Assembly: GCA_951406725.2 (NCBI GenBank)
Contig: OX597822.1
Coordinates: 79,608,001-79,672,000, forward strand
Source: Octopus vulgaris
Taxonomy: Eukaryota
DNA: 64,000 nucleotides
Reading direction: 5' to 3'
Position 1 is the first letter of the stretch; every line of letters starts with the position of its first letter. This document shows positions 19,187 to 48,090 of the stretch, in pieces. The notes beneath the pieces were generated by a model. It was not told where the DNA came from. It saw only the letters and a list, made by a program, of their open reading frames with translations, and made no database searches. The position numbers and the translations under genes are program-made.

Positions 19187-19250
<64 letters not shown>

Positions 19251-22144: not shown

Positions 22145-22293
22145 TGTAGTAGTGTTGACAGTCATGCTTCACAATTTTTGACTGTGACTATATTTTTGAC
22201 TATATATATATATATAATATATTATAAATATATAATAATAATATGTATATATAGTAGTAATAACAATAATATATATATGTATGTTCGACGGGT

Positions 22294-22355
22294 CGTGTTC
22301 TGTCCTTACCTTAGAAACACGCATTGAGTTGAACCAGGGACAGCTGATGAAAGGG
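22294..22355 (+). ncRNA. Non-circularly permuted (pseudoknotted) hammerhead ribozyme, copy 1
   Basis: Order is CGTG-TT-CTGTCCTT, CCTT-A-GAAA-CACG, AGGGACAG-CTGATGA-AAGG. All three stems can pair. Confidence 0.75.
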
Positions 22356-22477
22356 AATACTCCTTGTATTGTTTGTCTTGTACTCTGTTTTTTCGTTGTT
22401 AAAAAAAGTCCGTTTCCTAGTTTGTTTTTATGTTTTCGTTTCTCGTTGAGTTCTACGTTTATTTGTGGTGTCCTGTA

Positions 22478-22515
<38 letters not shown>

Positions 22516-22524
22516 CATATATAT

Positions 22525-22783
22525 ATAACATAAGGGACTAAAGCCATCTGAATATGGCTAGGGACAGGCAGGGTGGTGGGGGTGTTACTGTTGCATTTAG
22601 CCCAGGCGAACATCGACGTCACCAGAAAGGCTCGATAAACCTGCCCTTTGCAGGTTTAGGGCACCGTGACGGTGTCGAGCCTTTCTGGTGACGTCGATGT
22701 TCGCCTGGGGCTAAATGCAACAGTAACACCCCACCACCCGCCTGTCCCTAGCCATATTCAGATGGCTTAGTCCCTTATGTTAT
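22525..22783. repeat. GC-rich inverted repeat with a T-shaped double-hairpin centre
   Basis: About 110-bp near-perfect arms. Centre 22636-22674 is TAAACCTGC-CCTTT-GCAGGTTTA, GGG, CACCG-TGA-CGGTG. Confidence 0.9.
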
Positions 22784-24392: not shown

Positions 24393-24905
24393 GGATCTTT
24401 TCCTTTTGAATGGCTGACAATTTTCGAATTTCAACCAATCCTATGCTCCCTTTTGAGCTAAAATCATTTGCTGCGTCTAAAACTGAGACAACATCCTGTA
24501 ACTAACCCTAAACCTCCCCCCTAACCCTAAATTTCTTTTTCTTAATTCTTAAATTAATTTAATTGTTACGCGTGTAAAAAAAAAACTAAAGCAATGGAAT
24601 TAAATTAATTTAACAATTAAGAAAAAACAATTTAAGGTTAGGAGGGAGGTTTAGGGTTAGTTACAGGATGTTGTCTCAGTTTTAGACGCAGCAAATGATT
24701 TTAGTTGAATGGAGGTAATCGATTGGTTAAAATTGCCGAAATGCTCGGATTTTCAGACGAAATATCTTGCAAACTATAGAATTTTCTCAATAAAACCAAG
24801 AGAAAATAATGTTTTATAAACACATTCTACCAGTATACGAAGTTTAAAAGTGTTTAGTTAACTTAAAAATTGTGTTGACATCTGCCGTTCAAAAGGAAAA
24901 GATCC
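24393..24905. mobile_element. MITE with terminal and internal inverted repeats
   Basis: 22-bp TIR GGATCTTTTCCTTTTGAAYGGC. Internal IR at about 24460-24570 and 24600-24705 carries TAACCC motifs. Confidence 0.85.
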
Positions 24906-25049: not shown

Positions 25050-27526
25050 TAACCCGTAGTTTGAAGTACATTAGAAACAGGTAATAATAAGGATTTGGTA
25101 GCATTTTGGTAGCATGAGTTATCCGGGATATCATATCAATCATAGCGTACACTCTGTTATCTCAAAATCTATTCAACATTGTTTTTCTAATAACCTTTAT
25201 CCCCTTTGATATATAAACCTGCAATAATTAAATCGTATATTTACCACTTCAGTATAAATTTTAATCAGTATAAATTTTACAATATGTTACTAACTATCGC
25301 ACATCCCCTGAGTATAAGGTACACGCCCTAAGAACAGGGTTTTCGTTATGGTCTAAAGTTTTGGGTTCGATGCTGCAGCTATGTATGTGTTGGGCGCTCG
25401 TGTATTCAGAATTGTTTCGGTGTATATTTTGATAATAGAGAGAAAATTTTCGTCTATCAGAGGCTGTTACGATAGACTCAAAGTTGGGCGGGGAAGAGTA
25501 GAATAGCTTTAGGGTAGATCTATTAAAAATAGAGTAATATTTATGCTGACGAGGGAAGTTGGAGTTTAAAATATTAAAACAGGATTTGGCTAAGTTCTTA
25601 ACATTTAGTGAGAAGGGGGGTGTATACCATAGAATAGAGTGTCTACCGCTTCGTTTTGGTTGCTTAGGGATAGTATGATCTGTATTTTTAGAAATTAGAG
25701 TGAGTTATATGGCCCGTTATTGTTAGCTTTTGACCTAATGTTATATGTGTACGTATGGGGTCTAAGCTGTCTTAATCTGTGTACTTCTGGGATTCTAGTA
25801 TAGTACACGAATGGTCTGCTATGGTTATGGTGGTTAGCATGTGTTGATATGACTTGGGATATATGTTGCTTGAGCTTAGTATTAGACGTTAATTTTACTT
25901 GTTGGGAGAAGCCGCTGGCTGCGAGTGCTTGGTTGCAATAAGGCACGTGGTTATTGAATATTTCTTCAGTGTCTGAGAGGCTAGATATACGAATTGAGAT
26001 ATCCTTAACTATATTATCAAAGGTGGATTTGTGGTGACTGGAATTAATGTTTAAGTACCCATGGTACTGGTTGGGTTTATGATATGGGGAGTATTGGGAG
26101 GTTTCTAAGTTTAAAGTTACGTCTAAAAAATTAGCGGTTTTATGGGAATTCTCAAAAGTAAAGTATAGGTTGAGATTGGAGAAAAATTTGTACAGATCTT
26201 TCCTACTTCGTTCTTAGGAGGATTTATTACCACCCTTGGTGATTAGCAAAGCGTCATCTCTGTATAGGCTTCCCTTGATATTAGGGAAATGTGTTCGGAG
26301 CTGATGGAGTGAGTATAGTCCAATGAGGTCCGTGACCTGGGAAGAGTCGGATGATACCATAGTAATGTCAAAGCATTTGCTATAGTTATTGTTAGTGTTA
26401 TAGTGGTTGGCCCGGCACCAGAATTAGTCCTCGAAATGAATAAGAGATTTTCAGGTATTAAGAATTATGTTAATTTCTAGTGGGGTTAGGTTAGTTAGAT
26501 GCCTGGCTAGAAGGAGGGCTTGATTTAGAAGTTTTGGAGAAATAAATGAATAGTAATTATTCATATTGAATTGTGTGAATGAAGACAAATTAAGAAATGG
26601 AACCATATTATGACTTTACCTGTACTGGACCATAGGTTGACGTTTAATTACTCCTTGTTAATTGGTATTATTTTATCCAGAATGTTCTTGCTTATTCTTC
26701 CCAGGTAAGATTTGGTAGGGCATATGAGGCGTATAGATGGTTTGGTTATGAAGTCTTTCTTTTGATCCTTAAGGTTGAAGTGTAGAGATGTAGCGCAGTA
26801 GGGTTCTGTGCGATCGTCCACGTGTAGTTTGTTCATTATCTTGCATTGGCTGGTATTGATAATGTCATGGGCAGACGTCGGGACCAATTTATATGATTTG
26901 TATAGTTTTTTTTTGAAGAACGTGATGTATTCCTCGATAGTAATAGAATACATGTTTCCCGTTTTATCTGAGAAGACGCGCAATTTAGGTGATGAAGTGA
27001 TCCGTTTTATAGCTTGGGTTAGTTTTTTTTGAAAGGGGATTTATAGTTAGGGAATTTAATGTTCCTTATCATATGAAGTTTATCTGCTTCGAATTTGTCG
27101 AGTTGGGGATTTTGTGGAATATTTTTATAGGATCGAACATTGTTTGTATTGGTGCTATTATCACTCCGGTTGTTACCGTTGTTGTGGAAGGTTTTCCACC
27201 ACATTCTTCGGATGAAGTCTTTAGTGTTGATGAGTAAGAGTAAGCCAAAAGGTTTTGCGTGAAGGAATAGGTATGTCCTTAAGGGAAATGTCAAGGAATT
27301 ATTCTTTTACTTTTTTCAGTCATGTGACTGTGGCCATGCTGGAGCACCGCCTTAAGTCGAGCAAATCGACCCCAGGACTTATTCTTTGTAAGCCTAGTAC
27401 TTATTCTATCGGTCTCCTTTGCAGAACCGCTAAATTACTGGGACGTAAACACACCAGCACCGGTTGTCAAGCGATATTGGGGGGAGAAACACAGACACAC
27501 AAACATACATATACACACACACACAT

Positions 27527-27791: not shown

Positions 27792-28644
27792 ATATGAGAG
27801 GTTTTGGTATCCAGAAGATCTAAAAGGTAGGTATGGTTATGTAAGTGCTACAGAAGGACCGCTGTTAGACTCCAAGTTCGGTAATGGTATTAGTGAGGAG
27901 TCTAAAGCAGGTCGTGTGTGAGTGTATATATGTTAAATAAGATGAGACAGCAAAGCCAAGGTAGTGTGAAATTTCTAGGACATTTTATAAAGATAAAGGC
28001 AGTCTTACAGCTGTTTCAAGGATATAAAAGATATTCCATCATCAGAGACGATATGAGAGAGTTAAATAGAAGGAAATAGTAGAGTTAAATATAAGAAGTT
28101 ATTTTGGAAAGGGGGAGATATCAGAATTATAAAGGGAAATATAAGAATAAAAATAAAATATATATAAAAAATATAAGAATAAAAATAAAAAGATATGAAT
28201 AAAAATAAAAATAGAAATATAAAACTATAAAAATATATGTTGGATGTTAAACTGTACGGTTAACATCCAACATATATATTCATTTTTATTCTCATATCTC
28301 CCTTCATACTTCCTATATCTTTCTCTTTCCAAAATAACTTCTTATATTGAACTCTACTATTTCCTTCTATTTAACTCTCTCATATCGTCTCTGCTGATGG
28401 GATATCGTTTATATCTCTGAAACAGCTGTAAGACTACCTTTCTTTTTATAAAATGTCATAGAAATTTCGTACTGCCTTGGATTTGTTGTCTCATTTTATC
28501 TAACATACACACGCTCATACACGACTCGCATTAGACTCCTCACTCATACTATTATCGAACCAGGAGTTTGATAGCGGTCCTTCCGTAGCGCTTACATAGC
28601 TTTACCTGCCTTTTGGATCTTCTGGGTACCAAAACCTCTCATAT
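27792..28644. repeat. Inverted pair of PLE pLTRs, each with a hammerhead
   Basis: Diverged arms fold about 28255 (TGTTGGATGTTAA..TTAACATCCAACA). Hammerhead at 28002-28049(-) has CTGATGA and at 28387-28434(+) has CTGCTGA; both have GAAACAGCTGTA. Confidence 0.85.
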
Positions 28645-28764: not shown

Positions 28765-30278
28765 TTGATAACTTTGATTGGTTTTGATCAGTTTTGGCTC
28801 AAGTCATGTCTAACTTAATAGCACCACCTGGTGAAGTCTTTTAGTTACACATGGGGCACCATGGCCTACTATAGCAAAGAGTTATTATTTGTTGGAGACA
28901 TATCCGGGTGTAGAAGGTTGGTCCGGGATTTTTTGAAGAAATTTGTCCAGTGAACATTTGGATTTTATGGGATCAGTTTCCGTTGTGACGTATTTTGATT
29001 TGGTGTTAAAGAAAGCTGGACCAGTTGAGGTAAAGTAGTTGTGACGTAATGTTGTTATGTATCCCGAGTTCGATTTTTGAATTGGTCGGTTAGCACGGGG
29101 GCCAAGTCTCGGGCGAATTTTGAAATTGATGCTAACATAATTTGTGCCAAATCAATGGAATATTTTCCACATCACGCAAATGATGTAGCGCTCCCGGCGG
29201 CCTTGGAAGGAGTAGCGATTGAGTTTTTTAGTCGACCTCAATAGTCAATCCCTGTGGTACTGTCTATATTTCTTGTTATTGACTTCTGGAGTGCTTTCAC
29301 TTTCATAGTGAGTTGTTTCGTGTGGGGAGACCACTGTAGGCAACAATATTAAAGGTGGGGTCGGGCAAAAGTAGAGTAGAGAAGGATGAAGGTGTGGGCA
29401 TGTCTAGATCGGAAAATTCTCGGGATGCAGGAGCACATCTTGTGGGCAAAGTGAACCTTGCTGTTTACGTGGGAAGTCCAGCTTAGATTGTTATCCACAA
29501 TTTCTCCAAGGTCTCTGGTGTTGACACTAGGAAGTCGACCAAGGAACGGTATATAGTAATTTCAGAGTATCCTCTTTTCCAAAGTGGACCAAATTATATT
29601 TATATTCATTTAGAAGCATATTGTTCTTTTCCACCCATTGGACAACAACAGACAAATCCGACTGAAGGTATGTTCGGTCTCCCATACCGTTTATGGCCTT
29701 CTGGAGTTTCCAATCAACTGCAATGATTTTCAGTGTTGAATGTTTGATGATGCCTGCTGTCATTGATGTAGATAGTGAAGAGGAGTGTGCTCAGCACAGT
29801 ACCTTGTGGGGCACCACTACTGACTTTGGCTGAGCTTGATCGGATTCCTTCAAACACAAAATGTCAGGTTTTGTTTGTCAGGAAACACTTTATCCACTGC
29901 GGCAGCTTACCACAGTCTCCAATAGTGGACAATTTCTTCAGCAGGATTTTGTGGTCCACTCTGTCAAATGCCTTGCTGAAATCAAGGTATATGATATCAG
30001 TGTTGGAGCCTTCACCCAAAGCTTTTAAAATGTCATCAAAATAGTGCAGAAGCTGCCATCACGGAAGCCATGCTGGTTGGGTTCAGCAGATTGTTGTCTT
30101 CGTGGAAGTGAGTTATTCGCAATCTCACCACCCTCTCAAATACTTTAATGGTATGAGAAGTGAGTGAAATCGGACGGTAGTTCGCTACAAGAGATTTATT
30201 TTCCTTTGTGAAAACTGGAACGACAGACTGGGAAAGAAAATGATCAGGAGTGTAGCTTACGTCAAGTGAGTTGCTCCA
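28765..30278 (-). mobile_element. Degenerate CR1/L2-type LINE RT fragment
   Basis: NYRPISLTSH, IYLDFSKAFDRVDH, GAPQGTVL, RDLGEIVDNNLSW and WSPH on the minus strand. Confidence 0.8.
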
Positions 30279-30424
30279 TATATATGTATAATATATACAT
30301 ATATATATATATAGTCTGAAATTTATAGTGTTAATTGTCTATTATGGATGGTACATTACTCAAAGAAATACCAACTTTGTCTGATTTTCACGCTCTATTT
30401 ACAATCTTAAAAAGATATAATATA

Positions 30425-30495
<71 letters not shown>

Positions 30496-33145
30496 CATTG
30501 TGTACAGTGCTCAGGTGCACTACAACTCATCTAAAGTGTATGTATAATCAGGTGTAGTTTCGGCGGATTTCGGAAAGCATGAGGGCCTTAAAGGATGCAG
30601 TGTCATGGCAGTCAACAACTGACGCAGGCAGTTTGTTCCATGCTTCAGCAACTCCGAGCGTGAAAAAATGTTTCTGAAAGTCATGGGAGCTGTGTTGTTT
30701 TCTGACTTTGTAGGCATGTCCACGTGTGTTGGACACATGGAGATCAAAAAGGTGTTCAGTGTTGTTGTTGGTGAGGTGGTTGATAACTTTGTGGGTGTTT
30801 ACCAAGTCCATCGCCAGACGCCGGAGCTTCAGTGAATCCATGGCCAGGGAAACAAGGTGCTCAGAGTATGGTAGGTGTCTGATGGAGGGTATGCATTTGG
30901 TTGCACGTCTCTGAACAGATTCCAGGAGGTCAATGTTCTGAGCAAGATAGGGGTTCCAAACTGATGATGCGAATTCCAAGTGTGGTCGTACCATAGCTGT
31001 ATACAGTTTTAAATAGATGACTGGAGAGCGGCTAACAAAAGTCTTGCTGAGTGATGCTAAGACACCCTCGGCCTTCTTGACAATTTTAGAGATATGCTTT
31101 GTCCAACGCAAATCACTGCTGACAGTGATGCCTAGGTCACGCTCGCAAGAGGATTTCTTGATATCAGTGTTGTGGAGGGAGTATGTAGACGCAGGGTTTT
31201 TTCTCCCAAAATGCATGGTGGTACACTTGTCCACAGCCAGTTTCAGTTGCCAGTCTGTGATCCATTGCTGCATTGTGTCCAGGTCTGATTGCAGGAAAGA
31301 GCTGTAGACAACAGGATCTGTCCTCTTGATTTCAAGGTACAGCTTGATGTCGTCTGCATATTTCAATAGTGTGGCATTCTTTAAATTGGTATCTATGTCA
31401 TTAATGTATGCCACAAACAAGAAGAGACCAAGAACAGATCCCTGTGGTACACCCGATGACATCTCATATGGTGTAGAATGCTGTCCTAGAACTGTGACTA
31501 CCTCCTTTCGGCTGAGAATGAAGGATTTCAACTAGTTAAAAAGATCATACATCACACCTATTGCAGAGAGTTTCACCATAAGCCTTTTGTGTGGCGCAGA
31601 GTTGAAAGCCTTAGCAAAGTCAAAGTAGACAACATTCACCCATGAGCCACTGTCAGTGATCTGAGTAATGTCCTCAAGGAACTCGACAAGCTGATCACTG
31701 CAGCTGGAGTTAGGGACAAATCCATATTGTGAGGGTCGGATGAGACTGTGAGAGCTCCGGAAGTTCTAAAGTGTTTCTCTGACACACGATTCCATCAGTT
31801 TTGCAATACAGCTAGTGAGACTGACTGGGCGATGGTTGACAGGTGATGTGCGGTCGCCCTTTTTGAACAGAGGAATGACACTGGCAGTTTTCCACTGCTC
31901 CAGAGTAGCACTATTGTTGAGACAGTACTGGAAAAAAATAGAAAGCTGGTGTAAAAGGAAGTACCTGCCACGTTTGAGAAGCAGGTATGTAACTCCATCA
32001 AAACCAGGGGAGGCATAGTTGCGCTTATTTTGAAGGTGACGTCGCAGCAAGCATTACAGGTGTAAATTCCATAGTTGTTATGGAATTTGCTGTTAGAGAT
32101 GGTGAAGATGGTACATTTTGATTTTCAACAGTGAATATGTTTGCATAGCACTCGGCAAGAGTTCTGCGTATTCCTTGGGATCGTCAGTGATCTGGTTTGT
32201 GTGAGGGTTGCGAAGAGGGCCCACTGGAGAGTGAGGTCTCTGCTTCGAATGCACATATTTCCAGAAAACCTTGCTGTCAGGATTGGCTGCTATGCACTGT
32301 TCAAATTCAAGCATTGCTTTTTTTGTCACTTGCTTGAGATGGTTGGAAGATTTATTCCGCTTTTTCCTGTTGGTGTCTGATTTATGCAACTTGTATTCCC
32401 GTTCAGCAGTCCGACGTTCCTTCCTGGCAAGTCGGACCGCTGAAGTTTCCCAAATTGCACATTTGGGGCGGTTCTTCTTTTTCTGTTTACGTGGCACTGA
32501 TGCGGCACATGCTGCCCATATTGAGTCCAGGATACTCTGGAGTATGGTATTCACATCTCCTGAGTGGTAGAATTCACGCCAGTTTGGGTACTGTAATTCA
32601 GTGTGGTACAGGTTCCAATCTGCTCTCTTCCAATCGAAGGAAGCAGATTGGAGATGGTTCAGGTTTTTGTTGTTGCCCGCAAGAGCCAGATTGGCGATGA
32701 TCATAGCATAATCAGAGTCGCCTAGAGGTTCCTCCGTAGTACAATTGATAACCGCTTCAGGAGTTGTGGTGAAGAGCAGGTCCAAGGTGTTTCGCCTCTT
32801 GTTGGAGAGGTGACTACTTGTGACCAGTTTGAGTCCAGTACAAGCTCAACGAAATCGTTTGCATTCTGTGGCCAATGGAAGGTTTCCCAATTGATCTCAG
32901 GATGATTGAAATCGCCTGCAATAAAAACATAAGTGGTTTTCCTGGCAGCAGCTCGGAGGATATCGCAAAGCTGTGTGTCTTGATGGTAATTTGGGGGACG
33001 ATAAACAACGCCAAGCAGGAGTGTTGACATGGTCATACGTATGTCACAGAAAAAAACTTCTTGTGATTCGTTCAAATCAGCACAAGGAATTACCGAAAAA
33101 TGTGAACGAACGTAGACCATCACACCACCACCATGGACAAACTCT
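30425..33145 (-). mobile_element. CR1-type LINE ORF2 (APE and RT), frameshifted, ending in a TAA/TTA tail
   Basis: VYRPP, AGDFNHP, PTRG, LGDSD, SPGFDG, RPVSLTS, GVPQGSVLG, YADD, VRPHLE, TRGH, WNKLP. Confidence 0.92.
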
Positions 33146-33423
33146 AATCAAAGTAAGATTTCACGCACCATAAGTAATAACCTGAGTACCCTTGTCACCT
33201 ACTATGTAGATAGCGAACGATTCGACCTCAGGCTGAATGCGAACTCAACAAACGATCGTTATGTGTATTTTCAAAATCATGCTGTAGTGCAGTCAAATTC
33301 GAGTTTTTCGCTTTTTCTTCCTCGTTTTTTGTCCGACTATGACATGTGCACACTCTCGCTAACTGAAAGCTTCATATCATGTGCCTGCTGTTCGTTTCTG
33401 ATGTTTCAATAAAAAGTTCTTAC

Positions 33424-33818
33424 TTAGTTAGTTAGTTAATTTTTTGGCTCAAAAAGCAAAAAGCAAGGCCATGTAGGGGGACATGGAGTTATGTGCAGGG
33501 TGGTGTTCATGTAAAGAGTTCAGGCCACTTGTGGTCAAGGGAGACTTTGAACCGAGCGGTCGTCGGCATCTTCACCATCTCGTCCGGCAGCTTATTCCAC
33601 GGATCCGCAACCCGGACGGAGAAAGCCCCTCTCCTTCGATTGAGATGAAATCGTCGCAGATAGAGCTTTTCGGAGTGACCCCACAGCCGACGCTCTGGAT
33701 CAGGAGAGAAGAACAGCTCTTTCGAGAGGTTACACTTTCCGCTTATGATGTTGTGAGCAAGAATGAGATCACCACGGCGTCGTCGTTTTTCTAGAGAATA
33801 AAGGTCGAGCGTCTTTAA
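33424..33818 (-). mobile_element. CR1 3' end fragment with (CTAA)n tail
   Basis: Minus strand reads YSLEKRRRRGDLI..RLRGHSEKL..FSVRVADPWNKLP. Confidence 0.85.
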
Positions 33819-33819
33819 G

Positions 33820-35275
33820 GTAGTGCAGAAACACTGTATTACTCGTGAGTTCTAGCCTTGAATTATCTTAGGTACCGGTGTGCTTCTATTTGTTTAGCTA
33901 TAAAATGGGGTAAGAACAAAACTCAGGCTTTTTACAGATAAAGATTGCTTCATTTTGTGCTAAATTCCTTTCTTTGTTCTCGGAAATTATGTTCGCCTTT
34001 CCATCGCATTTTTTAACGCGTTTAACTGAGCCTCTGCAGATTCTGAGCTCACCCAGAGGTGCAGCTGCACTGGGTAATTAATCATCGCAAATTTGGCGGC
34101 TTTGTTGAAGATGAAGGGGGAGAATGTTAGAAAATCGATAAAGACCACCATGAAAGCAAACCTTCACAAACAAAATGAAATGAATAATCAGGGCTGACAA
34201 AGTTTTCAAATTTCCTGGTAAGCGGAAAAATGTGACTGAGAATTAATTAGCATCTCAGTTTTCACTCGTATCTCAAAACACAAAAGCATGAAATTTCGCT
34301 TAAGAAAATCTTTGTATCTTAGTTCATTCATACCTCAAGTTAGGGCTAAAAGAAAAGGTTGCAGTCAATTTAAATGCGGAAACCTGCAAGGAATAGTTTT
34401 ATTGAGTTTCCACTGATTGATTGGCAATTTTGTTAAACTCGAATCAAATTAAGATTTCTTACACCAAAAGGATCACTCTGATAACCCTATGCCCCTGCTG
34501 TGTAGGTAGCAAATGATTCGATCTAACGCTGAATGCAAACAAATAAACGTTTTTTTAATGAAAATCCCTTGGGTGGGGATCAACTTACCCATTTTAATTT
34601 TTAATCCTACTTGAATAAAACATCCTGGGCTCTGGCTGGATAACTTAAATCAACCGAATGCATAAAAGTAAAGCCCTTCCTAAATAGATTCATTGAATAG
34701 GCTCCAACTCTTTTATGGCATACTTAAGGAATGATAGCATATCAAGTATATTTGGTCTTTCATGAAAATCCCGCTCTCTTGTCATTCACTTGGTCTAACT
34801 CGTTAATTATTCCCTGCATTTCTCAAATCAAAAAAGCGTGCACCTTTGGAAGCCAAAACACATGATAACGCGTCTTCGCAAAACACAAAAATGCGCTGAT
34901 TCAGACAGACTGTCTGCAAATGCGCACGCGCATTCAACTGTCAAGGGTAAAATTATCTCCGTTCAAAAAACAGCTGGCAGTCTATTGGCATATCTAGCTG
35001 TACGCACGCACCGCGTACAAATTTCTATGTTTTAGCGATTTTGAATGGACATGTCCATAACTGATGGGCATAAGGGGTCGCTTTATAAATTTTTTAATGG
35101 CTTTCTGGGGTTACTGGGGAAATGAAAAGATCTTCACGACCACCCTCAGACAGTTTTAAAAGCCCATAGAAAATACGAGCCGTTTACGTGGAAAACTGTG
35201 GATTTGTATAAAGGACATACAGACACACAGACACATAGATACACAGACATTTTGCCGTTTATAGATATAGAGATA
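33820..35275 (+). mobile_element. Probable non-autonomous Helitron-like (HINE/DINE-type) element
   Basis: 3' end has GACA-rich repeats followed by TTTATAGATATAGAGAT, like the end of 56980-57495. 5' boundary is a guess. Confidence 0.4.
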
Positions 35276-35467
35276 TAACATAATATAATATAATATAATA
35301 TAATATAATATAATATAATATAATATGAGATAATATAATATATTATCTTATATTATTATAAGATTGTGAATAAAACGTGAAAACCAGACACTTGGAATTT
35401 CTTTGAATAATACATTCTTCTATACACAATCATGCATACCCGTGTATATATATATATATATACACAA

Positions 35468-35640
<173 letters not shown>

Positions 35641-35699
35641 TTAGTCCATGTATGTATGCATGTATAGAGTGCCTGAAGTGGTGTACAGATGTTGTATAC

Positions 35700-36397
35700 T
35701 GAGAAAAAGGAGGCAGTCAGAATCTTTTAATAACCCTTTATTAGAGCTTTCGCTCATTTACGAACTCGTCAAGACGAAATCAAAATCAAAAGGCTAAATA
35801 GAAAGATAGAGGGAGAGAGGGAGAGAGAGAGAGAGAGAGCGAGAGGGAGAGAGAGAGAGAGAAAGAGAGAGGGAAGTTTATTTCCAATTTGATGTTGTCC
35901 TTTCTTTGAAATTTCATTTCGTTTTTTCTTTCTCTTTTCTTTTTTTCTTTCTACATTGTATACCCATCAACGTATTTGTAAATAAGTACATTTTCTCACA
36001 AGTACTGGTGACCTTTCAAAGGTGTCAATTTTAGGAAGTAAGATGGAAGAAATAAGAAAAGGGGGAAAATATTAGTGTATGTCCGTTTTTTTGTAAAACA
36101 TGTCTATTGTGACTGTAAAGTGGTGTATTTTTATGTGGATATCCAGGAATGGTAATTCATTGCAACTGGATTCTGTCATGAATTTGGTAGATGGATGAAG
36201 TGTGTTGAGTATATTATTAAATGCTTGTAGGTCCTCATTTGATTTATCCCAAAAGATGAAGCAATCATAGCAGAAGCGTTTCCACTTTTTAAACGTTCTG
36301 TTTTCACCATTTTGATTTTGATTTTGTCTTGAGTTCGTAAACGAACGAAAGCGCTAATAAAGGATTATCCAAAATTCTGACTGCTTCCTTTTTCTCA
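35700..36397. mobile_element. PLE remnant: inverted pLTR pieces enclosing an RT fragment
   Basis: 35700-35790 is the reverse complement of about 36310-36397. Minus strand 36110-36290 reads WKRFCYDCFIFW..LHPSTKF..ELPFLDI. Confidence 0.75.
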
Positions 36398-36606
36398 ATG
36401 TAAATATATATCGTAAAAATTTTAATCTCGTTCGGCTTAACAGCCCTTCTTGTTTGTGTTACTGTTAGTCTCCTTGTTCTGTCTTTTACTGTTTATATTT
36501 TGTACTGTCGTTACTGTCCTGTTTTTGTTACCATTTTTACCCCTCCGCAAAAAAATCTCAAATTTTATTTAATTTGATTTTCGCGGGAAGGATTGTTTTA
36601 TTAAAG

Positions 36607-36667
36607 TCATGTATCGCCTTGACCTTCGAAACGTGGAGTAGATGAAACAAAGGCGACTGAAGAAGGG
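36607..36667 (+). ncRNA. Non-circularly permuted (pseudoknotted) hammerhead ribozyme, copy 2
   Basis: Order is TCATG-TA-TCGCCTT, CCTT-C-GAAA-CGTGG, AAGGCGA-CTGAAGA-AGGG. Downstream tail is homologous to 22360-22480. Confidence 0.75.
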
Positions 36668-36932
36668 GAATTTTCCTTGTTTTGTATGTCCTGTACTCTA
36701 TTTTTTCGTTGTTTAAGAAAAATGTCCATTTCCTTAGTTTTGTGTTTATGTTTTCGTTTCTCATTGTGTTCGACGATTTTTGGTGTCCTGTACCCATATA
36801 TGCATGTATATATACATGTAGAGGTAGGTACGTACATATATGTATGTATATATACATATGTTTTATTTATTTATTAATTTATTATATATATATATATTTA
36901 TATATATATATATGTATATATATATATGTATG

Positions 36933-36966
<34 letters not shown>

Positions 36967-38873
36967 TGTATGTATGTATGTATGTATGCATGTATGTATA
37001 CACTTCAATTAAAGGTTGTGTTATCCTCATGAATGGATGGTTCGATCCAAAGAAATACTGGTTCAATACCTGGTAATTTGGGGGGAATTAATTTCCTTAA
37101 TATAATACATATAATACATATATACATATAACAGCATATAGTTTATAATCATATAAAAGAGGGCAAAGAAAATAGAGATTAGGAAGTTAATAATTGTTTA
37201 CTAATCATCTTTACTTACAGCTGTTTCAATTAATACCCAAGAAATATTAAGTAAATATTAGATTTATATTTATATGACCTGAGCATAATATCTTCAAAGG
37301 GGTAAAATATAGCCTTGGATGTTTTATATGAGTTTGTGGATTCATTATAACAGACTGAATAACTCTTAATTTATCAATCCCAAAAGGATGAAAGGCAAAG
37401 TCGACTTCGGCGGAATTTGAATGATGGGCGAAATACCGCTAAACATTTTCTCGGCGTGCTAACTATTCGTTCAGCTCGTTGCCATAATAATTATAATAAT
37501 AATACTTTCTACTATAGGCACAAGGCCTGGAATTTGTGGAGAGGGGACAGTCGATTACATCGACCCCAGTACTACACTCTTCTATATATTATTATTTGAG
37601 CTCGACCCAATCTTTTGTTGTATAATTGCTTGACCAATTATACAACGCGGCTCTGTTGCCTCTATTTCTTTCTCTTGCAGTGATTATATTATATTAGCGT
37701 GTATTATGAATTCTTGTATTCCTTGTGCAAAATAAAAGAACATTTAAAAGAAAATTTGTATTTTTTAAAAAAGTACTAATTATAATTATGCTGACAAGTG
37801 GAATACTATTAGTGATACTACAATCACTTCTTATAAAACCAATTTTTCTTCCAAAATGATAAACATTGTTACTTCGGTTTTTTTGAAAACATTTAATTGA
37901 AATGAAATATCAGGCCTAAATGATAATTATAAAATAAAAATTAAAAACCAGTGGTGGCCTTTCCGCTATAAAAACTAACAATTACGTCAACGTTGTATAT
38001 GGGTGAACCAGAAATTGAGCTATCGATGCTAGAATGATAATCTCAATAATAAATGATATAATATAATCTTAAAGAACAAGAAAAATAAACGGAAAAAATT
38101 TCTTGTTTTTCAGAAAAAGTTTTCAACAAAAACGTTCAAACTTATTTTTCTTTAAAAATTTGTTGATTTACAGAAAAAAGGTTTAATAATATGTTGAGCC
38201 TTCAAAATAAAAAAAATAATAATAGGCATTTTGTTGCACTTTTGAAATGCTCATCTCATTAGCAAATGCATTTTATTTTAAAGGTGGGTAGGACACCACC
38301 ACTTCATTCCAATTTTATTAAAGTAAGATTAGCTATATCATTACTTTTAGAAGCATTTAATGGGGATTAATGACGGAAGGAGACGTATAATGGAATGAAG
38401 GAGAGGAGAGAAAAAGGAGGGGAGGAGGAGAGGAGAAACATGAAATAAAGCTAAGTCCAAGAACATGGATAATGAGCTATTCGAAGAGAAAAGATGGAAG
38501 GAGGTGAAGGATGGAATGAAGAAGAGAAAAGGGAAAGAAGAAAGAAGAGAGGAAATAAAAAGAGGAAGAGAGAGAGAGAGAGAGGGAGAGAGAGATAGAG
38601 AAGAAGCACGGAAAAAAGACAGGTCTGGGAAGAAGGATGATGTAACAAATGAAGATGAAGAGAAAGGATTGAAAATGGAACGAAGGAGAGAAAAGGAAAA
38701 GAAAGAGGAGGAAGAAAAGAGTTTATTACTAAAACTATTATTTTTTTCAAGATAAATATGAACAAGCACTCAGTTAGTTTCGACGACGAGGGTTCGATCA
38801 ACGGAACAACCATCTCGTGATATTAATATGCAAAGAAATACATTGATTTACAATATATTTATGTGCATGCATG

Positions 38874-38905
<32 letters not shown>

Positions 38906-38919
38906 CATACATGCACACA

Positions 38920-40890
38920 AATTTGGACCTCAGAACTCTCTGCATTCAATAAAACAGTGGCCCGCAATGTGTTTGCAGTGCCAGTACTCATACCAACATT
39001 TGGGCTGCTTGATTGGACGCTTGATGAGAACCAAGCGATTGATGTGAAAACCCGGAAAATGCTAACCAGCACACATATTTTTCACATAAACAGTGACGTA
39101 GACCGCCTCTACCTAAAACGAAAACACGACGGCAGAGGCTTAATATCGATCCAAAATGCCTTTGAATGTCGTATACAGCCCTTCGAAACCTCTTTAACTA
39201 CCGAGTGTTAAAGTGCATCCCTTGACCAAGTCTGCATACACGGGGCTGATAACATCATAAAACTTGGAAGATAGGTCCTTGAGCAGCGTTCCATGCCTGA
39301 TAACCTTAAATACATGCCCAAAGAAGTCACATGACTCTACTGCATTGTATCATTAGATGAAAAGATGAGTCTGTATGGGCAGAAGATTATGCAGGGATAT
39401 GTTAGAAGAACGCTCCGTGATGGTTAGCATTGATCATCAAAGCAATATATCACGGACCAATAGCCGGATTACGACCTCCCACTTTGAAGGGTATGCGTCT
39501 GCAGGAAATATCAACCAAATACCTGATGCACAATGGGGGTATAGATGCAGGAAAAGCAGTAAAATGTGACTTTGTGGAATTAACACCGAAGATATCACCC
39601 ACATGATAAGCAGTTGTCCGAAAATGTCATCAGGGTATTATCTACTGAAGAGACATGATGCAGTAGTTAGGACACTCTATAATGAAATCCGTCGGAAGGA
39701 TAACCCCGAGAACAAAGAAATAAGAATCCACTGTATGGTAGCAGCCATAGCCACGCATAATAAAAAAGAAGACTGGTGGAATGTACCTGTGAAAACCTCA
39801 ATAAAATGTAAGCACAACAAACTTGATATGATGATTTCGGATAGAGAAGAGAAACTGTGTACAGAAGTTTATCATTTAAATATATATGAGAATATTTAGA
39901 TCTACTCACATAAAACATACAAATCTGCACATACATACATACAGACAAACATACATACATACATACATACATACATACATACATACATACATACATACAT
40001 ACAAAAATATCCTGTTGTTGATGTTCAAATTCCAATGAAGGAGCCTTGAATCTAGGTTAGAAACCGGCTCTTTCTCTATTGGCAAGAAATCTTGAAAAAA
40101 AAAACTGAATAAGGACATACATACATACATGCATACATACATACATACATACATACATACATACATACATACATACATACATACATACATACATACATAC
40201 AGACCTGATATAATGATTTGGGATGCAGAAGAAAAATTGTGTAGTGTTGCGAAAATTAGCTGCTCAGCGGATGTTAACATAAAGCTGAAGATCAGTTAAA
40301 AAAAGAATACCTATGTTGAACTATTGAGAAATCTGCAGTTACTCTATCCAGATTACAAGTTCAGGATTATGCCCTGGGATTTGGGCCCTGGGATATGTAA
40401 CACACTACCGAAATACCAATCTTGAGAAATTAGGCTTCTCAAAACAAGAAAGGAGAACGCTGATTCAAAGACTACCGATCCAATCCATCACCAGAACTGT
40501 AAAATCTGTAACCTTCCCAGAAGTTTGCCATTTAAATATATAAGACCATATCTAGACATAGAACTGTATGTACGAGAATATATGCATAAAACAAAACATA
40601 CAAATCTGCACATATACATACATACATACATACATACATACATACATACATACATACATACATACATACATACATACACACACACACATACATACATACA
40701 TACATACATACATACATACATACATACATACATACATACATACATACATACATACATACATACATACATACAAAAATACCCTGTTGATAATGTTGAAATT
40801 CCAATGAAAGCGTCTTGGATCTAGGTTAGAAATCGACTCTTTCTCTATTGGTAAGAAATCTTAAATAAGCTGAATAATGCCATACATATT
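38920..40890 (+). mobile_element. Two tandem truncated copies of the (TACA)n-associated RLE retrotransposon
   Basis: IWTSELSAFNK..FAVPVL..DWT, RLYLKRK.GRGL, EDITHMISSC, KRHD, WWNVP..KHNK.D. Second piece starts RPDIMIWD at about 40200. (CATA)n at every junction. Confidence 0.85.
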
Positions 40891-40984
40891 TACAAACATG
40901 CATACATACATATATGACTTTCAGGTAATTAACACCAGAGGCTTTGTGAGAGCATTCCCCACCTCCCCATACCGTAGCCTACCG

Positions 40985-41111
40985 AGAAATACCTGAAGCG
41001 TATACGTTAAGTATAACTGGTTGATAATGTCTATTAGTCTAGTGCTACTAGAAATACCTGAAGCGTATACGTTAAGTATAACTGGTTGATAATGTCTATT
41101 AGTCTAGTGCT
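40985..41111. repeat. Direct tandem duplication, about 65-bp unit
   Basis: AGAAATACCTGAAGCGTATACG...AGTCTAGTGCT occurs twice. Confidence 0.9.
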
Positions 41112-41449
41112 GCTTCTATTTCATATATATATATATTTTTGCATTGAGAATCCCTCCTCGCTGATGACGAGTCAATACCCCAAAACTCGGATCCGTGTGT
41201 ATCACGTCAGGCTGGAGATGGGAAAGATGACTTCCCTTTGCGAATACTGATGGGGCACAGATAGTATGTCAATAGCCACCTGGCGGAGATGTCTTTCTGG
41301 GGCTACAACCTATAGTAGCATCGATCCTTAAGGGTTAGCCACATTTAGGTGGGAAATATAACTCACGATGTCGTGCTTCTACTTTTTATATCTCGCTCAG
41401 AGATTTATTATTGTATATATATGTGTGTGTGTGTGTGTATGTATATCAC

Positions 41450-41741
41450 ATGATCACATGTTGCTACACATCGCTACACATCGCTGGTCACAATGCTCTT
41501 CGCATTGGTTTAGCCTTCACATGACGCCACCCCACTGGCTAAGCGAGCAGGCCAACAGAAGAAAGAGTGAGAGAAAGTTGCGGCGAAAGAGTACAGCAGG
41601 GATCGCCCCCCCCCTGCCAGAGCCTCGTGCAGCTTTAGGTGTTTCGCTCAATAAACACTCACAACGCCCGGTCTGGGAATCGAAACCGTGATCCTACGAC
41701 CGCGAGTCCGCTGCCCTAACCACTGGGCCATTGCGCCTCCA
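41450..41741 (-). mobile_element. tRNA-derived SINE (family 3)
   Basis: Reverse complement has A-box TGGCCCAGTGG and B-box GGTTTCGATTCC followed by a unique body. Confidence 0.8.
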
Positions 41742-41781
41742 CGCGTATGTATATATGTATGTATATATGTATGTATATATG

Positions 41782-41852
<71 letters not shown>

Positions 41853-42099
41853 ATGTATGTATGTATATATAAACCATGTTGTTTGAAAAGATATGTAAGT
41901 TATTTCTTTATTATCATGCGGGTTCACACAGATGGGGACAATACAATGATTTGGGGTCAAATGGAAATATATACAGTGAAATCGAATGGATTAATTACAA
42001 TGAAAATGAAAATGAAATTGAACAAGAACAAACAAATAAAAAGGGACAAATGAAATCAAAAGAACTAGGTTGCCGACCCCACGAGCCCCGTCATTTTAA

Positions 42100-43058
42100 C
42101 TGAAACCTTTTGGTAAGTGATCATGGCGTGTTCATGCAAGGCCTTTCACCCCTAGCATTCGTGCAACACGCATCCATCTTTTTTTGATTACAGACTCTGA
42201 CAGACACCTTTTCTCTAGCCCACCTTCCTTTTCAGATGGAACCTGAAAAAGTTCGTTAGGGCGGTGCCAGAGATCATGGTGTCTGACATTATACCTTTCA
42301 CTCTAGTCTTCCATATAACCTCTTTCGCAACTGCTACTGTCGCGAGAAAGCAATGCTTACCTTCGTTCGTCATGAAACCAGGCGGGTCAATTTTTAAGAT
42401 TGACTCAGACGACAGCTGTACTCTTCCTCCGTCCGACAACAGGTGTTCGGCATAAACCCACACTTCCGAAATTTCCGGACACTGAACAATGGCGTGCAGG
42501 ACTGTTTCCACATCCTGCCCGCATCTTGGACAGGCCGAAGGTCCACTGTGACCATGCCTTGTGAGTTTATCTCGAACGGGTAAGGCCCCACTGTAACACT
42601 GCCAGGCCAATGACTTCTGAAAGTTATCCTGTGTCCCTGGTCCGAATGTCCTTTGGAATAGGCTGTCTAACTGATTACCATCGAGACCTAGGGTCTTTCC
42701 CAGGGTATCGTCATTTCCGGCCTCTACCAACCTACTATAGAACGCTGCAGTGGAACCAAAGCCACCGGCATTGCCCGAGCTGCGGAAGCGTAAGAGAGCC
42801 TTCCGGCACTCCGAATACCACATACTCGATCTTAGTCTGCGACGAAACCAGGTTTCTCTACCACCAAAACAGGCAAAGCTGGGGACCACTTTGCGAGCGG
42901 GGACCACACCCGTTCACCTTCCAGGTAGAGCCAAAGATGCCCCAACCTCAGCGCATGTCTGCGCATCAACAGCCAAGGCATCCCTAACCCACCCTTTAAT
43001 GGCTTTTGACAACAGATAGAACCTCTCACAAGAGGAGTGGAACCCTTCCACAAAAAGC
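42100..43058 (-). mobile_element. Tx1/L1-clade LINE 3' fragment (zf-RVT region)
   Basis: KGGLGMP, WQCYSGALPVRDKL and CPRCGQDVETVLHAIVQC, then IWKTR. Confidence 0.8.
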
Positions 43059-43060
43059 GA

Positions 43061-44943
43061 AAATGATTATTTCCATGTATCCCATTGTTAAATTCGCAAT
43101 GACTGGTGCTGCCCTTGTACCCATAGCAATTCCGGATTTTTGACGGTAAAATGTATTGTCAAACATGAAGTGGTTATTGTGTAGGATGAATTCAATTGAT
43201 TTAGTAATGAATTCTTTACTGATCCTTTTTGGTATTTCTTCCGGAAATTGGTCTAACCAGAACTGTATTGCCTCCAGTCCATAATTATGAGGTATACTGG
43301 TATACAAGTTGACTACATCAAATGAAACCAGGATTGTTTCTTCCTTGGCTTTTTTTGGAAGGTGGTTTAACATATCTAAGTCATCTCTGATATGGCTATC
43401 GATATGTTTAAGAAAGGGTTTCAGGAGGATGTCCATAAGTAGACTTAGTCTGTGTGTTTCACAAGTTGGGCCAGCTGGAAATAATCATTTACCAGGAATC
43501 TTTATCAATCTTTGGAAACCCCCTCTCTCAATACATAAAAGATAACTGGAAACGATTCTTGGACGATTGTTTTATTCTCTGGAATGAAAACACAGATAAA
43601 CTCCTAAAATTTAAAAACCTATTGAACAGCATAAACCCAAATATACAGTTCACAATGGAATACAACCAAAAGGAGCTCCCGTTCTTGGATATACTAATTA
43701 AAAAAATTAACCTTAAAATAGAAACAGACATTTTCTACAAAGCCACAGACGCCAAACAATACCTTCTCTTTAATTCATGCCACCCAAGACACACTAAAAC
43801 AAACATCCCCTTCAACCTTGCAAGAAGGATATGCACAATAGTGTCAGAACAAAATACCAGGAACTTTAGACTGCAAGAACTCAAAAACACCCTAATTGAC
43901 AGACATTACCCAGCTCAACTCATAGAGGATGGGATCAGACGTGCAACAGAAATCAACATAGAAACTTTAAGAAAAGTTCAACACAACAACACACCTTCCC
44001 CGAAAATACTACCTTACATATCTACATACAACCCCAGAAACAAAGAAGCCTTCACCATCATCACCCAGAATTTACCAATACTTCATAAAAAACCCAAATT
44101 AAAGGAAATTCTAAACATACACCAAATCATTAAAAGCTACAAACAGCCTAAATCACTTAAAAAGATTCTCACAAAGGCAAAATTGTCTTCTGAAATTACG
44201 GATGCAAAAGTAAAAAAATGTGGTAGATCGAACTGTGCAACATGTCCTAACCTGCTAGAAGGATCAGAATTCCTCTTTAAAGAGGGACAGAAATTCAAGA
44301 TCAAATCTAACTTTACTTGTGCCTCTGAAAACATAATTTATGTCATAAAATGCTCGGGCTGCCACCAAGACTACGTGGGTTCCACGGGACTATCACTCAG
44401 ATGTAGATGCACACTGCATCGACAACAGATTGCATTCCCAGAATATAGAATGATACCTTTTAGTAAGCACATTGAGAAATGCGCAAAGCAACTACTACCA
44501 CAATTTTTAATCTTTCCATTTTACCAATGTGCTTTCGGATCATCAACACAAATTAGACTAAACAAGGAAACATTCTTCATTGAAAAGTACAAGCCCAGAC
44601 TCAACCATCCGAACATACTGATACAGAGAAATTCACATTAAGGGAAAAGGAAAAAAATTTTTTAAGCGATTATCTCTCTTACACAGGAAGAAATCACCCA
44701 CTACCTTCCCTTATTTAGAACTCTCCGGAGCATAAACACAAGGATAACTCTATTCAACATAAACATAACGTCACAAGAAATTTGAAAAGCTAAATGCGAA
44801 ACCGGTCTTTCTTTAAAAATTATGTCATTATAAGGGAGGAAAAAAATTTTTTTTAACAAATTTTCTAATATTCTTCAGACATATTGACGCAAATATATAT
44901 ATTTTTTAACATTTAAGCCTTCTGTCGTTTTTTCACTCTTTAC

Positions 44944-45169: not shown

Positions 45170-45352
45170 CAGCTGAGGCTGGTGTGTTTACGTCCCCGTC
45201 ACTTAGCGGTTCGGCAAAAGAGACCGATAGAATAAGTACTGGGCTTACAAAGAATAGGTCCCGGGGTCGATTTGCTCGACTAAAGGCGGTGCTCCAGCAT
45301 GGCCGCAGTCAAATGACTGAAACAAGTAAAAGAGTAAAAGAGTAAAAGAGTA
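45170..45352 (+). mobile_element. SINE family 2, 3' half (preceded by a small CR1 RT piece at 45043-45165)
   Basis: Matches 46830-47005. The preceding piece reads HLEYCCPLGSPH..IESPQR. Confidence 0.75.
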
Positions 45353-45353
45353 A

Positions 45354-45393
<40 letters not shown>

Positions 45394-45455
45394 TAATAAT
45401 AATAAAAATATTACCGATTATAGTAGTATTAGTAGTATTAGTAGTAGTAGTAGTA

Positions 45456-45492
<37 letters not shown>

Positions 45493-45514
45493 CAACAACA
45501 ACAACAACAACAAC

Positions 45515-45547
<33 letters not shown>

Positions 45548-48090
45548 GATAGCAATATCAATAATATTAATAGTAATAATGCTCCTAGTTGCAATTGTCG
45601 AGTTAAATCCCACTGTCCGTTATTAGGTAGATGTTTAATCCAAAATGTAGTTTATAAATGTACAATTGTGACTGAGGCTTGTAACTTTATATAATTATAG
45701 GATGTACAATAAATTTGAAAGAAACGTATCAATAACCATCCTTCATCTTTTAGACTCAAACATAAAGCAAATAGTACGTCTTTATCTAGTAAGATTTGGG
45801 AACTGAAAGAAAGCGGGATCGGATTTAGCCTTAAATGGGATATAATACGGAGAGCGCAGCGTTATAGAGATAGTCGATATGAGTGTGATCTGTGCTCAAT
45901 GGTAACTTATGAGATTTTTAAGTATAGGGACAAGAACAACCTGATTAATGATAGATTAGACCTAAGGTATCATGCATGCGTAGCGTCACCCGAATATTTA
46001 AGTATTTTCGAAACTAACAATTATAGGTGCCATACTTGAACTTCGATGGTGGAAATGAATTTTGGTGTCGTATCCGTTGTAAACTTACCCTCCAGTATTA
46101 AATATAAAAGATCATGGGATATTATGTTTTATGCTGAATTATATTGCATTACATATGTTATGTGCTACGTGTTGTGGTATGTGGAGTGCTATATGTAATA
46201 TTATCTCATGATAATCCCTGCCTAGTTCGTCTAACTTCACCCTATTTTGGTGATTACACTATTTTCCTTTCTAGGATGTTCTGCCCTACTCATCATATCA
46301 TGTATAGTTGTTATGACTTTATGGAAGTAAGTCTCCTTTCGACTAAATCATATACCACCTACAAACTTTAAAATCATACATACAATAACACCTGTAATAT
46401 TATAACTTATGAAATCCTTTCGGTTTGAATGCCTTTAACCGCTCTCAATACTTCCATATCTATTACCCTCACTTTTCGGGTTACGTTTAACTTTTCTCTG
46501 CCTCTAATTTTAATCCCCTGCCTCTTTATATGTAGGTTGTATGTATTTCTTATTATTTTCTCTAAATTCTTATTTTGTTTTCTTATTTTGATATCCTTAC
46601 TTAGGCGCAGGAGAGGCTGTGTGGTAAGGAGCTAGTTTACCAACCACATGGTTCCTGGTTCAGTCCCACTGCGTGTCACCTTGGGCAAGTGTCTTTTACT
46701 ATAGCCTCGGGCCGACCAAAGCTTTGTGAGTGGACTTGGTTGACGGAAACTGAAAGAAGCCCGTCGTATATATGTATATATATATATATGCGTGTGTGTG
46801 TTTGTCCCCCTAGCATTGCTTGACAACCGATGCTGGTGTGTTTATGTCCCCGTCACTTAGCGGTTCGGCAAAAGAGACCGATAGAATAAGTACTGGGCTT
46901 ACAAAAGAATAAGTCCCGGGGTCGAATTGCTCGATTAAAAGTGGTGCTCCAGCTTGGCCGCAGTCAAATGACTGAAACAAGTAAAAGAGTAAAGAGTAAA
47001 GAGTATTAACCTTTTTTCCTTCTTAACTTGATATTTTTCCGTTACTTAAGTCTATGCGAGAAATTAATACTATATCCGTATAAGCGCATAAATATTTGTG
47101 TATGTGTACATATGCATATGTATATGTGTGTGTATGTGTGTGTATGCCCACCCACAAACATATGTAAAAAAAACCCTCTTTGTAGATGTATCTGCATGCA
47201 TTTTTACACTTTTCTGATTCATGGCTTAAAATTAATAGACGGTATGCATATCTTTCTAGTTATTCCTTGAGCAGTCTTTATAGAAACCACCTAATAATTA
47301 ATTAATTAAGTAATCTTCCTGTTTAATGTTTATAATTGACATATACACACCTTTTACCTATTTTGGTTTTATCATGTTTGGAATTCTTAAATCTTATTTT
47401 TATACAACATAACAATATTGTTTATAAACATTCCCTCATATTGCCCCTAATAGAATTTCCTCTGTAATAACATCCTAGGTTTCTTACTGTTTTGCCCCTG
47501 TAAATGGTAATTAACATCGTGATTTAAAGTCTACGCCTACCCTAACTCTTTTTATAGACAGTTACTTATATCAAACTGACTACTCCTAATGTCATATTTC
47601 CTCCATGGAGAAAAGGGATACATATGATAATATTTATGACCATCCCTAGCCATGAGCTGTCAACTCACTCCTGTCCTTTATTCAAAATAGACACAGTCTT
47701 CTAGTCTCAGAATTAGTAGTTGATAAAGAGATAAATGAATTAGAAACGAATTACAACCCTATGACCCCACTATGCTCCATGTGATTCTTAGGAGTTGTAG
47801 TCTATTCTTAGTTGCAACAGCGACAACATGAATTTCTTCCATCTTCTTACTCTGTTAAAATATATAAGAAAAATTATATTAATTTATCCTACTTGTTAAA
47901 ATTCCATTTACTTATTTGTGCACCTGAAGATAGCACTACATTTAAATTGATGGAGCCCCTTGAAACGGTCGTACTGCATTACTACTTGATATCCTGTTGC
48001 TTATTTTGATTTTATTCACCTTCGAGCTGTGCGGATACCGGACTGACTTGGTGCTTCAACTTAAGTACCTAATTGAATCTTAATTATTTC
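45353..48090 (+). mobile_element. Degenerate PLE: Asn-rich linker, GIY-YIG, 3' region and pLTR hammerhead
   Basis: NCRVKSHCPLLGRC..VVYKC, STSLSSKIWELK and ECDLC at 45590-45900. Hammerhead-like CTGAAGA..GAAACGGTCGTA at 47919-47978. Continuity across the span is inferred. Confidence 0.6.
46604..47005 (+). mobile_element. SINE family 2, full length
   Basis: tRNA-like head GGCGCAGGAGAGGCTGTGTGGTAAG..GGTTCAGTCCC, central dinucleotide repeat and (AAAGAGT)n tail. Other copies at 48135-48280(-) and 59745-59900(-). Confidence 0.88.

Follow-up and report, generated by a model that had tools for sequence, protein, structure and literature searches.

Copy 2, the subject of this work, is a 5′-truncated member (477 nt) of an 811-nt repeat without ORFs (family A). 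It occupies positions 36411-36887 of the forward strand of the window, i.e., the whole 64,000-nt stretch of Octopus vulgaris DNA that was analyzed. Its limits were set by BLAST against other copies of the family, and a (TA)n/(TATG)n run (36888-37000), the likely target site, follows at the 3′ end of the element. A related sequence, copy 1, lies on the same strand at 22283-22526 and belongs to family B, which has an 824-nt unit. An earlier note had described the two as copies with different stems and 130 bp of downstream homology; the alignment is in fact longer, covering 233 nt at 77.7% identity. Copy 1 has a stem I of 8 bp and a stem III of 5 bp, and it lacks strand a of stem II, hairpin P0 and the 5′ strand of P5. 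Since it is truncated inside helix P4 and has an A in place of C11.1, it is likely dead, and it was used as a covariation witness rather than as an intact ribozyme. An inverted pair (35700-35791/36310-36397, 87% alike over 92 nt) lies close upstream of copy 2 and is not part of the family A unit, and long palindromic stretches, 76-99% alike, are present at 18799-19259, 22525-22783, 24422-24741, 27792-28644, 53135-53565 and 57490-57967, one of them abutting the 3′ end of copy 1. The window also contains what we take to be remnants of Penelope-like elements (PLEs) with a C-terminal endonuclease (RT end and/or GIY-YIG), at 7931-8260 (+), 14897-16261 (+), 25294-27040 (-), 43026-44641, 45338-46039 (+) and 54812-56017 (+); these show no link to copy 2.

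The hammerhead-like motif of copy 2 spans 36540-36668 of the forward strand, about twice the length drawn earlier. Its blocks follow the order site, GAAA, CUGAAGA, which is that of the type-SGC hammerheads of Eckert 2023 (PMC10085705; this and the other published sources are cited from their accessible parts). Every base of the hammerhead core is kept, with a wiring unlike the usual one. C3-U4-G5-A6-N7-G8-A9 is found at 36657-36663 (G5, 36659; G8, 36662; A9, 36663) and G12-A13-A14-A15.1 at 36628-36631; both are kept in the alignment of related copies, where GAAA is invariant, although the search patterns demanded GAAA. The A15.1-U16.1 pair and the U16.1-H17 site (GUA, 36611-36613) are flanked by covarying stems I and III. 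Stem I (positions 1.1-1.7, 36614-36620, with 36650-36656, which runs directly into C3) has 7 bp, all of them Watson-Crick, and stem III (strand b, 36607-36612, which runs into the GUA triplet, with strand a, 36631-36636) has 6 bp, two of them G-U. The positions proposed earlier for the site, GAAA, CUGAAGA and both of these stems were all correct. From the hammerhead numbering, the cut is expected after A36613.

The R10.1-Y11.1 pair that adjoins G12 is G36587-C36627, and it belongs to a 5-bp stem II, one strand of which comes from upstream of the cleavage site: strand a (36587-36591) forms five of five Watson-Crick pairs with strand b (36623-36627), which starts 2 nt after stem I. Three further helices complete the motif. 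P5 pairs 36540-36544 with the five bases directly after A9 (36664-36668), and was identified from the minimum-energy fold and a cross-family test. The P0 hairpin (36545-36586) has a 5′ strand that continues P5 and a 3′ strand that ends directly before G10.1, and P4 (36594-36602/36641-36649) connects stems I and II at their far ends; both are supported by the fold and by covariation. The helix order, from 5′ to 3′, is P5-P0-IIa-P4-IIIb-site-I-IIb-GAAA-IIIa-P4′-I′-CUGANGA-P5′. The opening of the core thus falls between A9 and G10.1, where P5 and P0 would act as a clamp. The confinement of the motif to 36607-36667 did not hold, as this span omits the stem II partner and three helices. Because half of stem II is missing from it, the 61-nt RNA would be expected to cut poorly or not at all.

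The helices were then examined in 14 aligned copies of the A/B superfamily. Two-sided changes were observed at 16 of the 35 pairs, compared with 9.2 in shuffles (none of 500 shuffles reached 16). In addition, 89% of the cells were paired, vs 40-47% when the partners were slid, a control that is lenient because the tested structure was derived from the same sequences. The two-sided changes fell in stem I (5/7 pairs), stem III (4/6), P4 (5/8 counted pairs) and P0 (2/4 closing pairs). No two-sided change was found at the five pairs of P5, and covariation was absent from stem II, four of whose five pairs are invariant; within A/B both helices are uninformative because they are nearly invariant, and their support comes from other families. 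The 69 nt at 36600-36668 have 42 exact copies in the 2.8-Gb genome that was searched (control, 0), which is a firm lower bound. The previous claim of a covarying, selected structure in a mobile family was thus borne out, and 36540-36668 is a real RNA structure under selection.

ViennaRNA, which cannot draw pseudoknots, independently gave P5, P0, P4 and III for copy 2 and for two further loci, L002 and L032, with z values vs shuffles of -2.0 (36536-36672), -2.2 and -3.6, respectively. The 61-nt span 36607-36667 alone folded no better than shuffles (z = -0.27). With 36 nt more on the 5′ side and 48 nt more on the 3′ side (36500-36720), P5 was lost to a local hairpin (36663-36678), which would sequester A9 and the 3′ strand of P5, and z was 0.02. 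Two divergent loci, L121 and L135, gave no scaffold fold (z = 0.98 and -0.16), P5/P0 being partly or wholly missing from their spans. Stem IIb of families A and B can alternatively pair with G8-A9 and the next three bases, a possible dead fold. All helices passed in 19 of 28 parsed A copies, 18 of 26 B copies and 7 of 29 copies of the Naiad type (see below), and most genomic copies are damaged. The cleavage triplet of family B is GUU, a slower hammerhead triplet. Contigs from 4 of 24 listed runs carried no information on expression, and a dip in depth near the site is also present in the largest run, one of unrecorded kind; assembled contigs placed on the stretch cannot show RNA ends.

The upstream strand 36587-36591 gives the canonical G10.1-C11.1 pair. 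With the bases after CUGAAGA as partner of stem IIb, a 10.1-11.1 pair is lacking in all 26 B copies and in 27 of the 28 A copies that were parsed. In a swap test, the stem IIb strand of each family searched its own upstream window and that of every other family identically. With seven families of distinct stem II, chosen by eye, upstream pairing scored 4.93 for own and 2.65 for cross combinations (exact p = 1/5040), downstream pairing 1.86 and 1.69 (1770/5040), and P5 5.14 and 3.83 (62/5040). The same was done, unselected, with all 30 loci obtained with a pattern that excluded the stem II ends of A, B and Naiad copies (1621 matches vs 398 in the control). This set includes chance hits and truncated copies, and two of its loci are one place taken twice; it gave p = 1.2e-4 upstream, 0.7 downstream and 0.006 for P5. 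These loci and 11 further stretches include families that differ in their stem II and P5 sequences. Sixteen hand-picked copies agreed with the swap test, the downstream p ranging from 0.35 to 0.7 across tests; these p-values are indicative, because related families are not independent. G10.1:C11.1 was present in 11 of 11 representatives, C11.1 being partly fixed by the search patterns. Stem II therefore uses the upstream strand, since only the upstream pairing covaries across the unrelated families analyzed here. Without an intact block C (CUGANGA followed by a stem II strand), the motif lies outside type SGC as defined.

The repeat that carries the motif is numerous. Family A gave 2707 first-look candidates, of which 40 were scored (96-98% identical, the copy in the window excepted), and family B gave 2000, with 40 scored; candidate counts are not copy numbers. 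The unit period is 811 nt in family A (seen at locus L015) and 824 nt in family B. Copies of family A have ragged, variable 5′ ends, and among 30 loci the 3′ end recurs 794-812 nt upstream, as a partial tandem, in four, an inverted neighbor copy occurs in three, and a short tail of 30-40 bp in six. Inverted neighbors were also found at 4 of 30 family B loci (L041, L049, L054 and L059). The family thus shows the 5′ truncation, partial tandems, inverted adjacent copies and 30-40 bp tail that are hallmarks of non-autonomous elements of the PLE type, and a TA run closes the 3′ end at 26 of the 30 family A loci, vs 74 of 420 background windows. The A/B unit has no ORF on either strand and no RT or endonuclease; a Naiad-type ORF (N-terminal GIY-YIG and C-terminal RT) is absent, the 811-nt unit running into its own next copy. 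A tblastn search of the upstream flanks with six PLE proteins from the window gave no match, no autonomous element sharing family A sequence was found among 60 A/B loci, and no Rfam hammerhead family was detected in 30000-43000 or 36500-36720 at E ≤ 5 and E ≤ 10. Retrozyme units are shorter, about 170-400 nt, with type-I hammerheads; the A/B units, with 811-824 nt and mostly dispersed, truncated copies, are unlike them.

The earlier suggestion that a full-length element upstream would reveal the RT family was not followed by such a find in the ORF-less A/B unit, and the link to an RT came instead from the layout of Naiad elements. A Naiad-type version of the motif has 697 matches in the genome vs 11 in the control, and the 3′ end of Naiad_Ovul, a published consensus, is matched almost identically by its copies. 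In these, stem IIb finds no partner in the bases after CUGAUGA (strict pairing of at least 3 in 0 of 29 parsed). At four loci (L169, L178, L181 and L185), all of which keep the motif words, RT-like remnants that are not followed by an endonuclease were found upstream, at a distance of about 0.8-2 kb from the motif. These remnants were matched to Naiad RT motifs by eye; Pfam, a homologue search and phmmer gave no support at threshold, and Atlas gave a lead only (PF26215 on 15% of the members of the fourth hit).

In their accessible description (PMC8557442), Naiads are reported to be without a canonical hammerhead, and eight consensi, including Naiad_Ovul, are marked 'HHR_half_core'. Naiad_Ovul carries the same RNA layout as copy 2. 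In the supplement of the same paper, at least 10 of the 54 consensi, read by eye, have the six-helix split layout: that of Beroe (loose, with a long insert), one of Clytia, three near-identical ones of Acropora, Naiad-2_Movir, Naiad_Plae, Naiad_Obim, Naiad_Ovul and one more without a name match. The hosts are a ctenophore, a hydrozoan, corals, a box jellyfish, an acanthocephalan and two octopuses, and the stem sequences are unrelated. At least eight other consensi, mostly from nematodes, carry by the same inspection unsplit hammerheads of type CSG, which is a rotation of the same S-G-C cycle; in those from nematodes, and in one that is probably from a spider, the CSG hammerhead is intact and has a long I-II helix. 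Eckert reported two CSG sequences only, from metagenomes (PMC10085705, accessible text). For the 3′ ends of Naiad_Esco and Naiad-Ppla no clean parse was obtained by eye. The split layout likely explains part of the reported absence of hammerheads from Naiads.

Family A and Naiads (PMC8557442, as far as accessible) have in common 5′ truncation, partial tandems, inverted copies, the 30-40 bp tail and the (TA)n preference; they differ in that the A/B unit has no ORF and no detected 3′-end similarity outside the ribozyme layout. Mobilization of family A by the Naiad RT would fit the shared layout and (TA)n ends, but the layout alone is no proof of it, because an unrelated LINE has this layout too. 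On the structural hallmarks, Naiad is the likeliest mobilizing partner, and family A is likely a Naiad-dependent repeat of the Penelope type. With best copies 96-98% alike, vs 75-87% for the Naiad 3′ regions here, family A may be of more recent origin than the known Naiad; both figures are from top matches and not from random samples.

The LINE in question bears a compact version of the motif, of about 85 nt (L139), in its 3′ tail. This version gave 2084 first-look candidates, and 18 of the 20 loci fetched for it contain a core (L192-L211, e.g., G000:C2:180349430-180349746 on the reverse strand; also L212-L214). The ORF of this host element finishes with a CCHC-like knuckle and a PD-(D/E)xK-like motif, and by these motifs we take the element to be a Hero-clade-like LINE with a restriction-like endonuclease; Pfam and PDB searches with the LINE ORF upstream of the compact family gave nothing useful. 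The element ends sharply about 70 nt after the ribozyme, and this end looks like a further hammerhead's second half (a hairpin, then GAAA, a short stem III and GUA, with no CUGANGA). Nine other loci (L121, L124, L127, L133, L135, L137, L143, L156 and L158) represent several more old split-core families with their own stem sequences. A supposed third SGC family (pattern with 361 matches, control 1) was rejected, since 26 of the 30 loci fetched belong to a canonical type-I family that had matched because of an unrelated upstream GAAA, and it was excluded from all counts. Most of the loci L061-L090 (e.g., G000:C1:45065344) are copies of a short, multi-copy repeat inserted beside (AAT)n runs, whose canonical type-I hammerhead has an extra A between A9 and G10.1.

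The reading that we consider probable is that 36540-36668 is a self-cutting, split-core hammerhead in an ORF-less Penelope-type repeat that is likely Naiad-dependent, and self-cleavage is predicted from the sequence with considerable confidence. P5, P0, P4 and III would fold first as a nested scaffold, on which stems I and II would then form as two pseudoknots. P5 stacked on P0 would hold A9 beside G10.1, and so replace the missing backbone link. In the published PLE hammerheads an extra base between 9 and 10.1 is conserved (PMC4209133, accessible part), which argues that the A9-G10.1 link tolerates change. The usual contact between loop I and loop II would be substituted by a short I-II link of 1-5 nt together with P4; in copy 2 this link is 2 nt long and P4 covaries, the three-dimensional role of both being a proposal. 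According to the accessible text of PMC10085705, cleavage in vitro is shown by type-SGC ribozymes whose architecture includes a short I-II link and a helix like P4. If two copies in a partial-tandem (pseudo-LTR) transcript were cut, a unit-length RNA would be set free with its ends still clasped by four helices (P5, II, P4 and III). This would favor ligation of the ends back into a circle, or else an end-to-end template transfer carried out by the RT of the element. In the co-fold, which cannot include stem II, three of these helices hold the products together with a net -8.2 kcal/mol. The predicted products would stay joined, unlike those of a type-I hammerhead.

Action within one copy, which the earlier note had thought possible, appears to us the fairly likely mode, action between two copies having a smaller yet substantial chance. 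The strict form of the latter is that the same wiring is active only between two copies, either in a dimer or with both pseudo-LTRs of a tandem transcript, with the P5-P0-IIa...I′-CUGANGA end of a first copy docked on the site-I-IIb-GAAA loop of a second, as in minimal PLE hammerheads; we regard this as rather unlikely. Since the nested fold is rod-shaped and has one half of the core at either end, one-copy action needs a U-turn between P4 and III, and the same geometric puzzle was remarked by Eckert (PMC10085705, accessible text). In a compact copy (L206) stem IIIa runs into P4′ without a linker, and the crude reach of 29 Å is below the 36 Å needed. PLE hammerheads commonly need dimers, as stated in the available part of PMC4209133. 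In copy 2, however, the crude reach of 61 and 73 Å exceeds the need of 39 Å, and it is also sufficient in nine other non-compact representatives, three of them poorly parsed. In well-parsed copies the distance from G10.1 to U16.1 clusters at 19-26 nt, which suits a constraint within one molecule. A canonical fold formed between tandem copies was rejected by block-scheme reasoning, since S-G-C tandems reach only GCS and CSG, and never types I-III.

It is improbable, in our judgment, that the motif is a hammerhead-derived structure that serves RT binding or the shaping of the template 3′ end, with little or no cleavage. The competing folds of family A favor such a non-cleaving role, the broken A9-G10.1 link might cripple the core, other PLE hammerheads have low activity in vitro (PMC4209133), and Naiads spread well without canonical hammerheads (PMC8557442), both sources as far as accessible. 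Against it, families and phyla that have no stem sequence in common all retain the catalytic bases, the A15.1-U16.1 pair and an NUH triplet, and in the nematode Naiads (accessible consensi) the corresponding place is taken by an unsplit type-CSG hammerhead. We give very little credit to the possibility of an ordinary type-SGC ribozyme, with stem II formed by the bases after CUGAAGA with a bulge or an extra base and an incidental upstream match. A downstream stem of 4 bp is feasible in families A and B if one bulge or one extra A is allowed, but this stem is weaker (-6.0 or -4.1 vs -8.7 kcal/mol upstream), it is absent from the other families and it gave no cross-family signal in the swap test (p = 0.35-0.7). 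Chance resemblance in a repeat can be dismissed for practical purposes: GAAA...CUGANGA alone is expected 3.7 times per window and one pattern search accidentally caught mostly a canonical hammerhead family, but the six-helix covariation within and across families refutes it, and the layout recurs in published Naiads of several phyla, as far as their consensi are accessible.

The split-core hammerhead of copy 2 shares with type SGC (HRIMA-1, PMC10085705) the order site-GAAA-CUGANGA, the mutual crossing of stems I, II and III, as well as a short I-II link and an extra helix that joins the far ends. They differ in that stem II of type SGC comes directly after CUGANGA, whereas in copy 2 strand IIa is upstream and P5/P0 lies between A9 and G10.1. 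The scheme of Eckert 2023 has six layouts built on the assumption of three unbreakable blocks, CUGANGA being taken as inseparable from its neighboring paired bases, and none of the RNAs in its accessible account occurs in the genome of a known organism except one bacterial GCS candidate (PMC10085705). Split-core copies, in contrast, are multi-copy in an animal genome. The motif is a new variant of the hammerhead class, and not a type-SGC member as defined. The minimal type-I hammerheads of PLEs (PMC4209133, accessible part) are likewise near the 3′ end or in the pseudo-LTR, have G10.1-C11.1, tolerate an insertion at 9/10.1 and share the proposed role of cutting tandem precursors, but they have the canonical order, a short palindromic stem III and dimer dependence. 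The permuted hammerhead with a non-palindromic stem III in a mobile family, as described in the earlier note, is supported for copy 2, the permutation being non-circular and the family of the Penelope type; the stems are full ones of 4-7 bp. The non-LTR retrozymes (bioRxiv 10.64898/2026.07.22.740005) are also non-autonomous, hammerhead-bearing tandem units linked to PLEs, and the accessible text mentions no permuted or Naiad-linked ribozyme. In the literature searched, mostly open-access text without figures, no hammerhead opened between A9 and G10.1 was found, and no permuted hammerhead in Naiads, including in PMC3088659, PMC11300833 and the same preprint.

If this reading is correct, hammerhead layouts extend beyond the six of Eckert, and these would be, as far as the literature searches showed, the first multi-copy animal hammerheads with a non-circular permutation. 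Descriptor-based ribozyme surveys miss the split-core class, so that their genome counts would be underestimates, and the compact version of about 85 nt would be a small target for structure work. We tentatively propose, at somewhat less than even confidence, that the new topology is the standard ribozyme of many Naiads, from ctenophores to octopuses, that it has moved to an unrelated LINE, and that, by clasping both ends of the cut RNA, the ribozyme itself circularizes the template for retrotransposition. The absence of hammerheads from Naiads has been used to question the importance of PLE hammerheads for transposition (PMC8557442, accessible part). The Naiad puzzle, i.e., no canonical hammerhead and eight unexplained half-cores, now becomes directly testable, and if Naiads carry rearranged hammerheads, self-cleavage would be a general need of Penelope-like elements.
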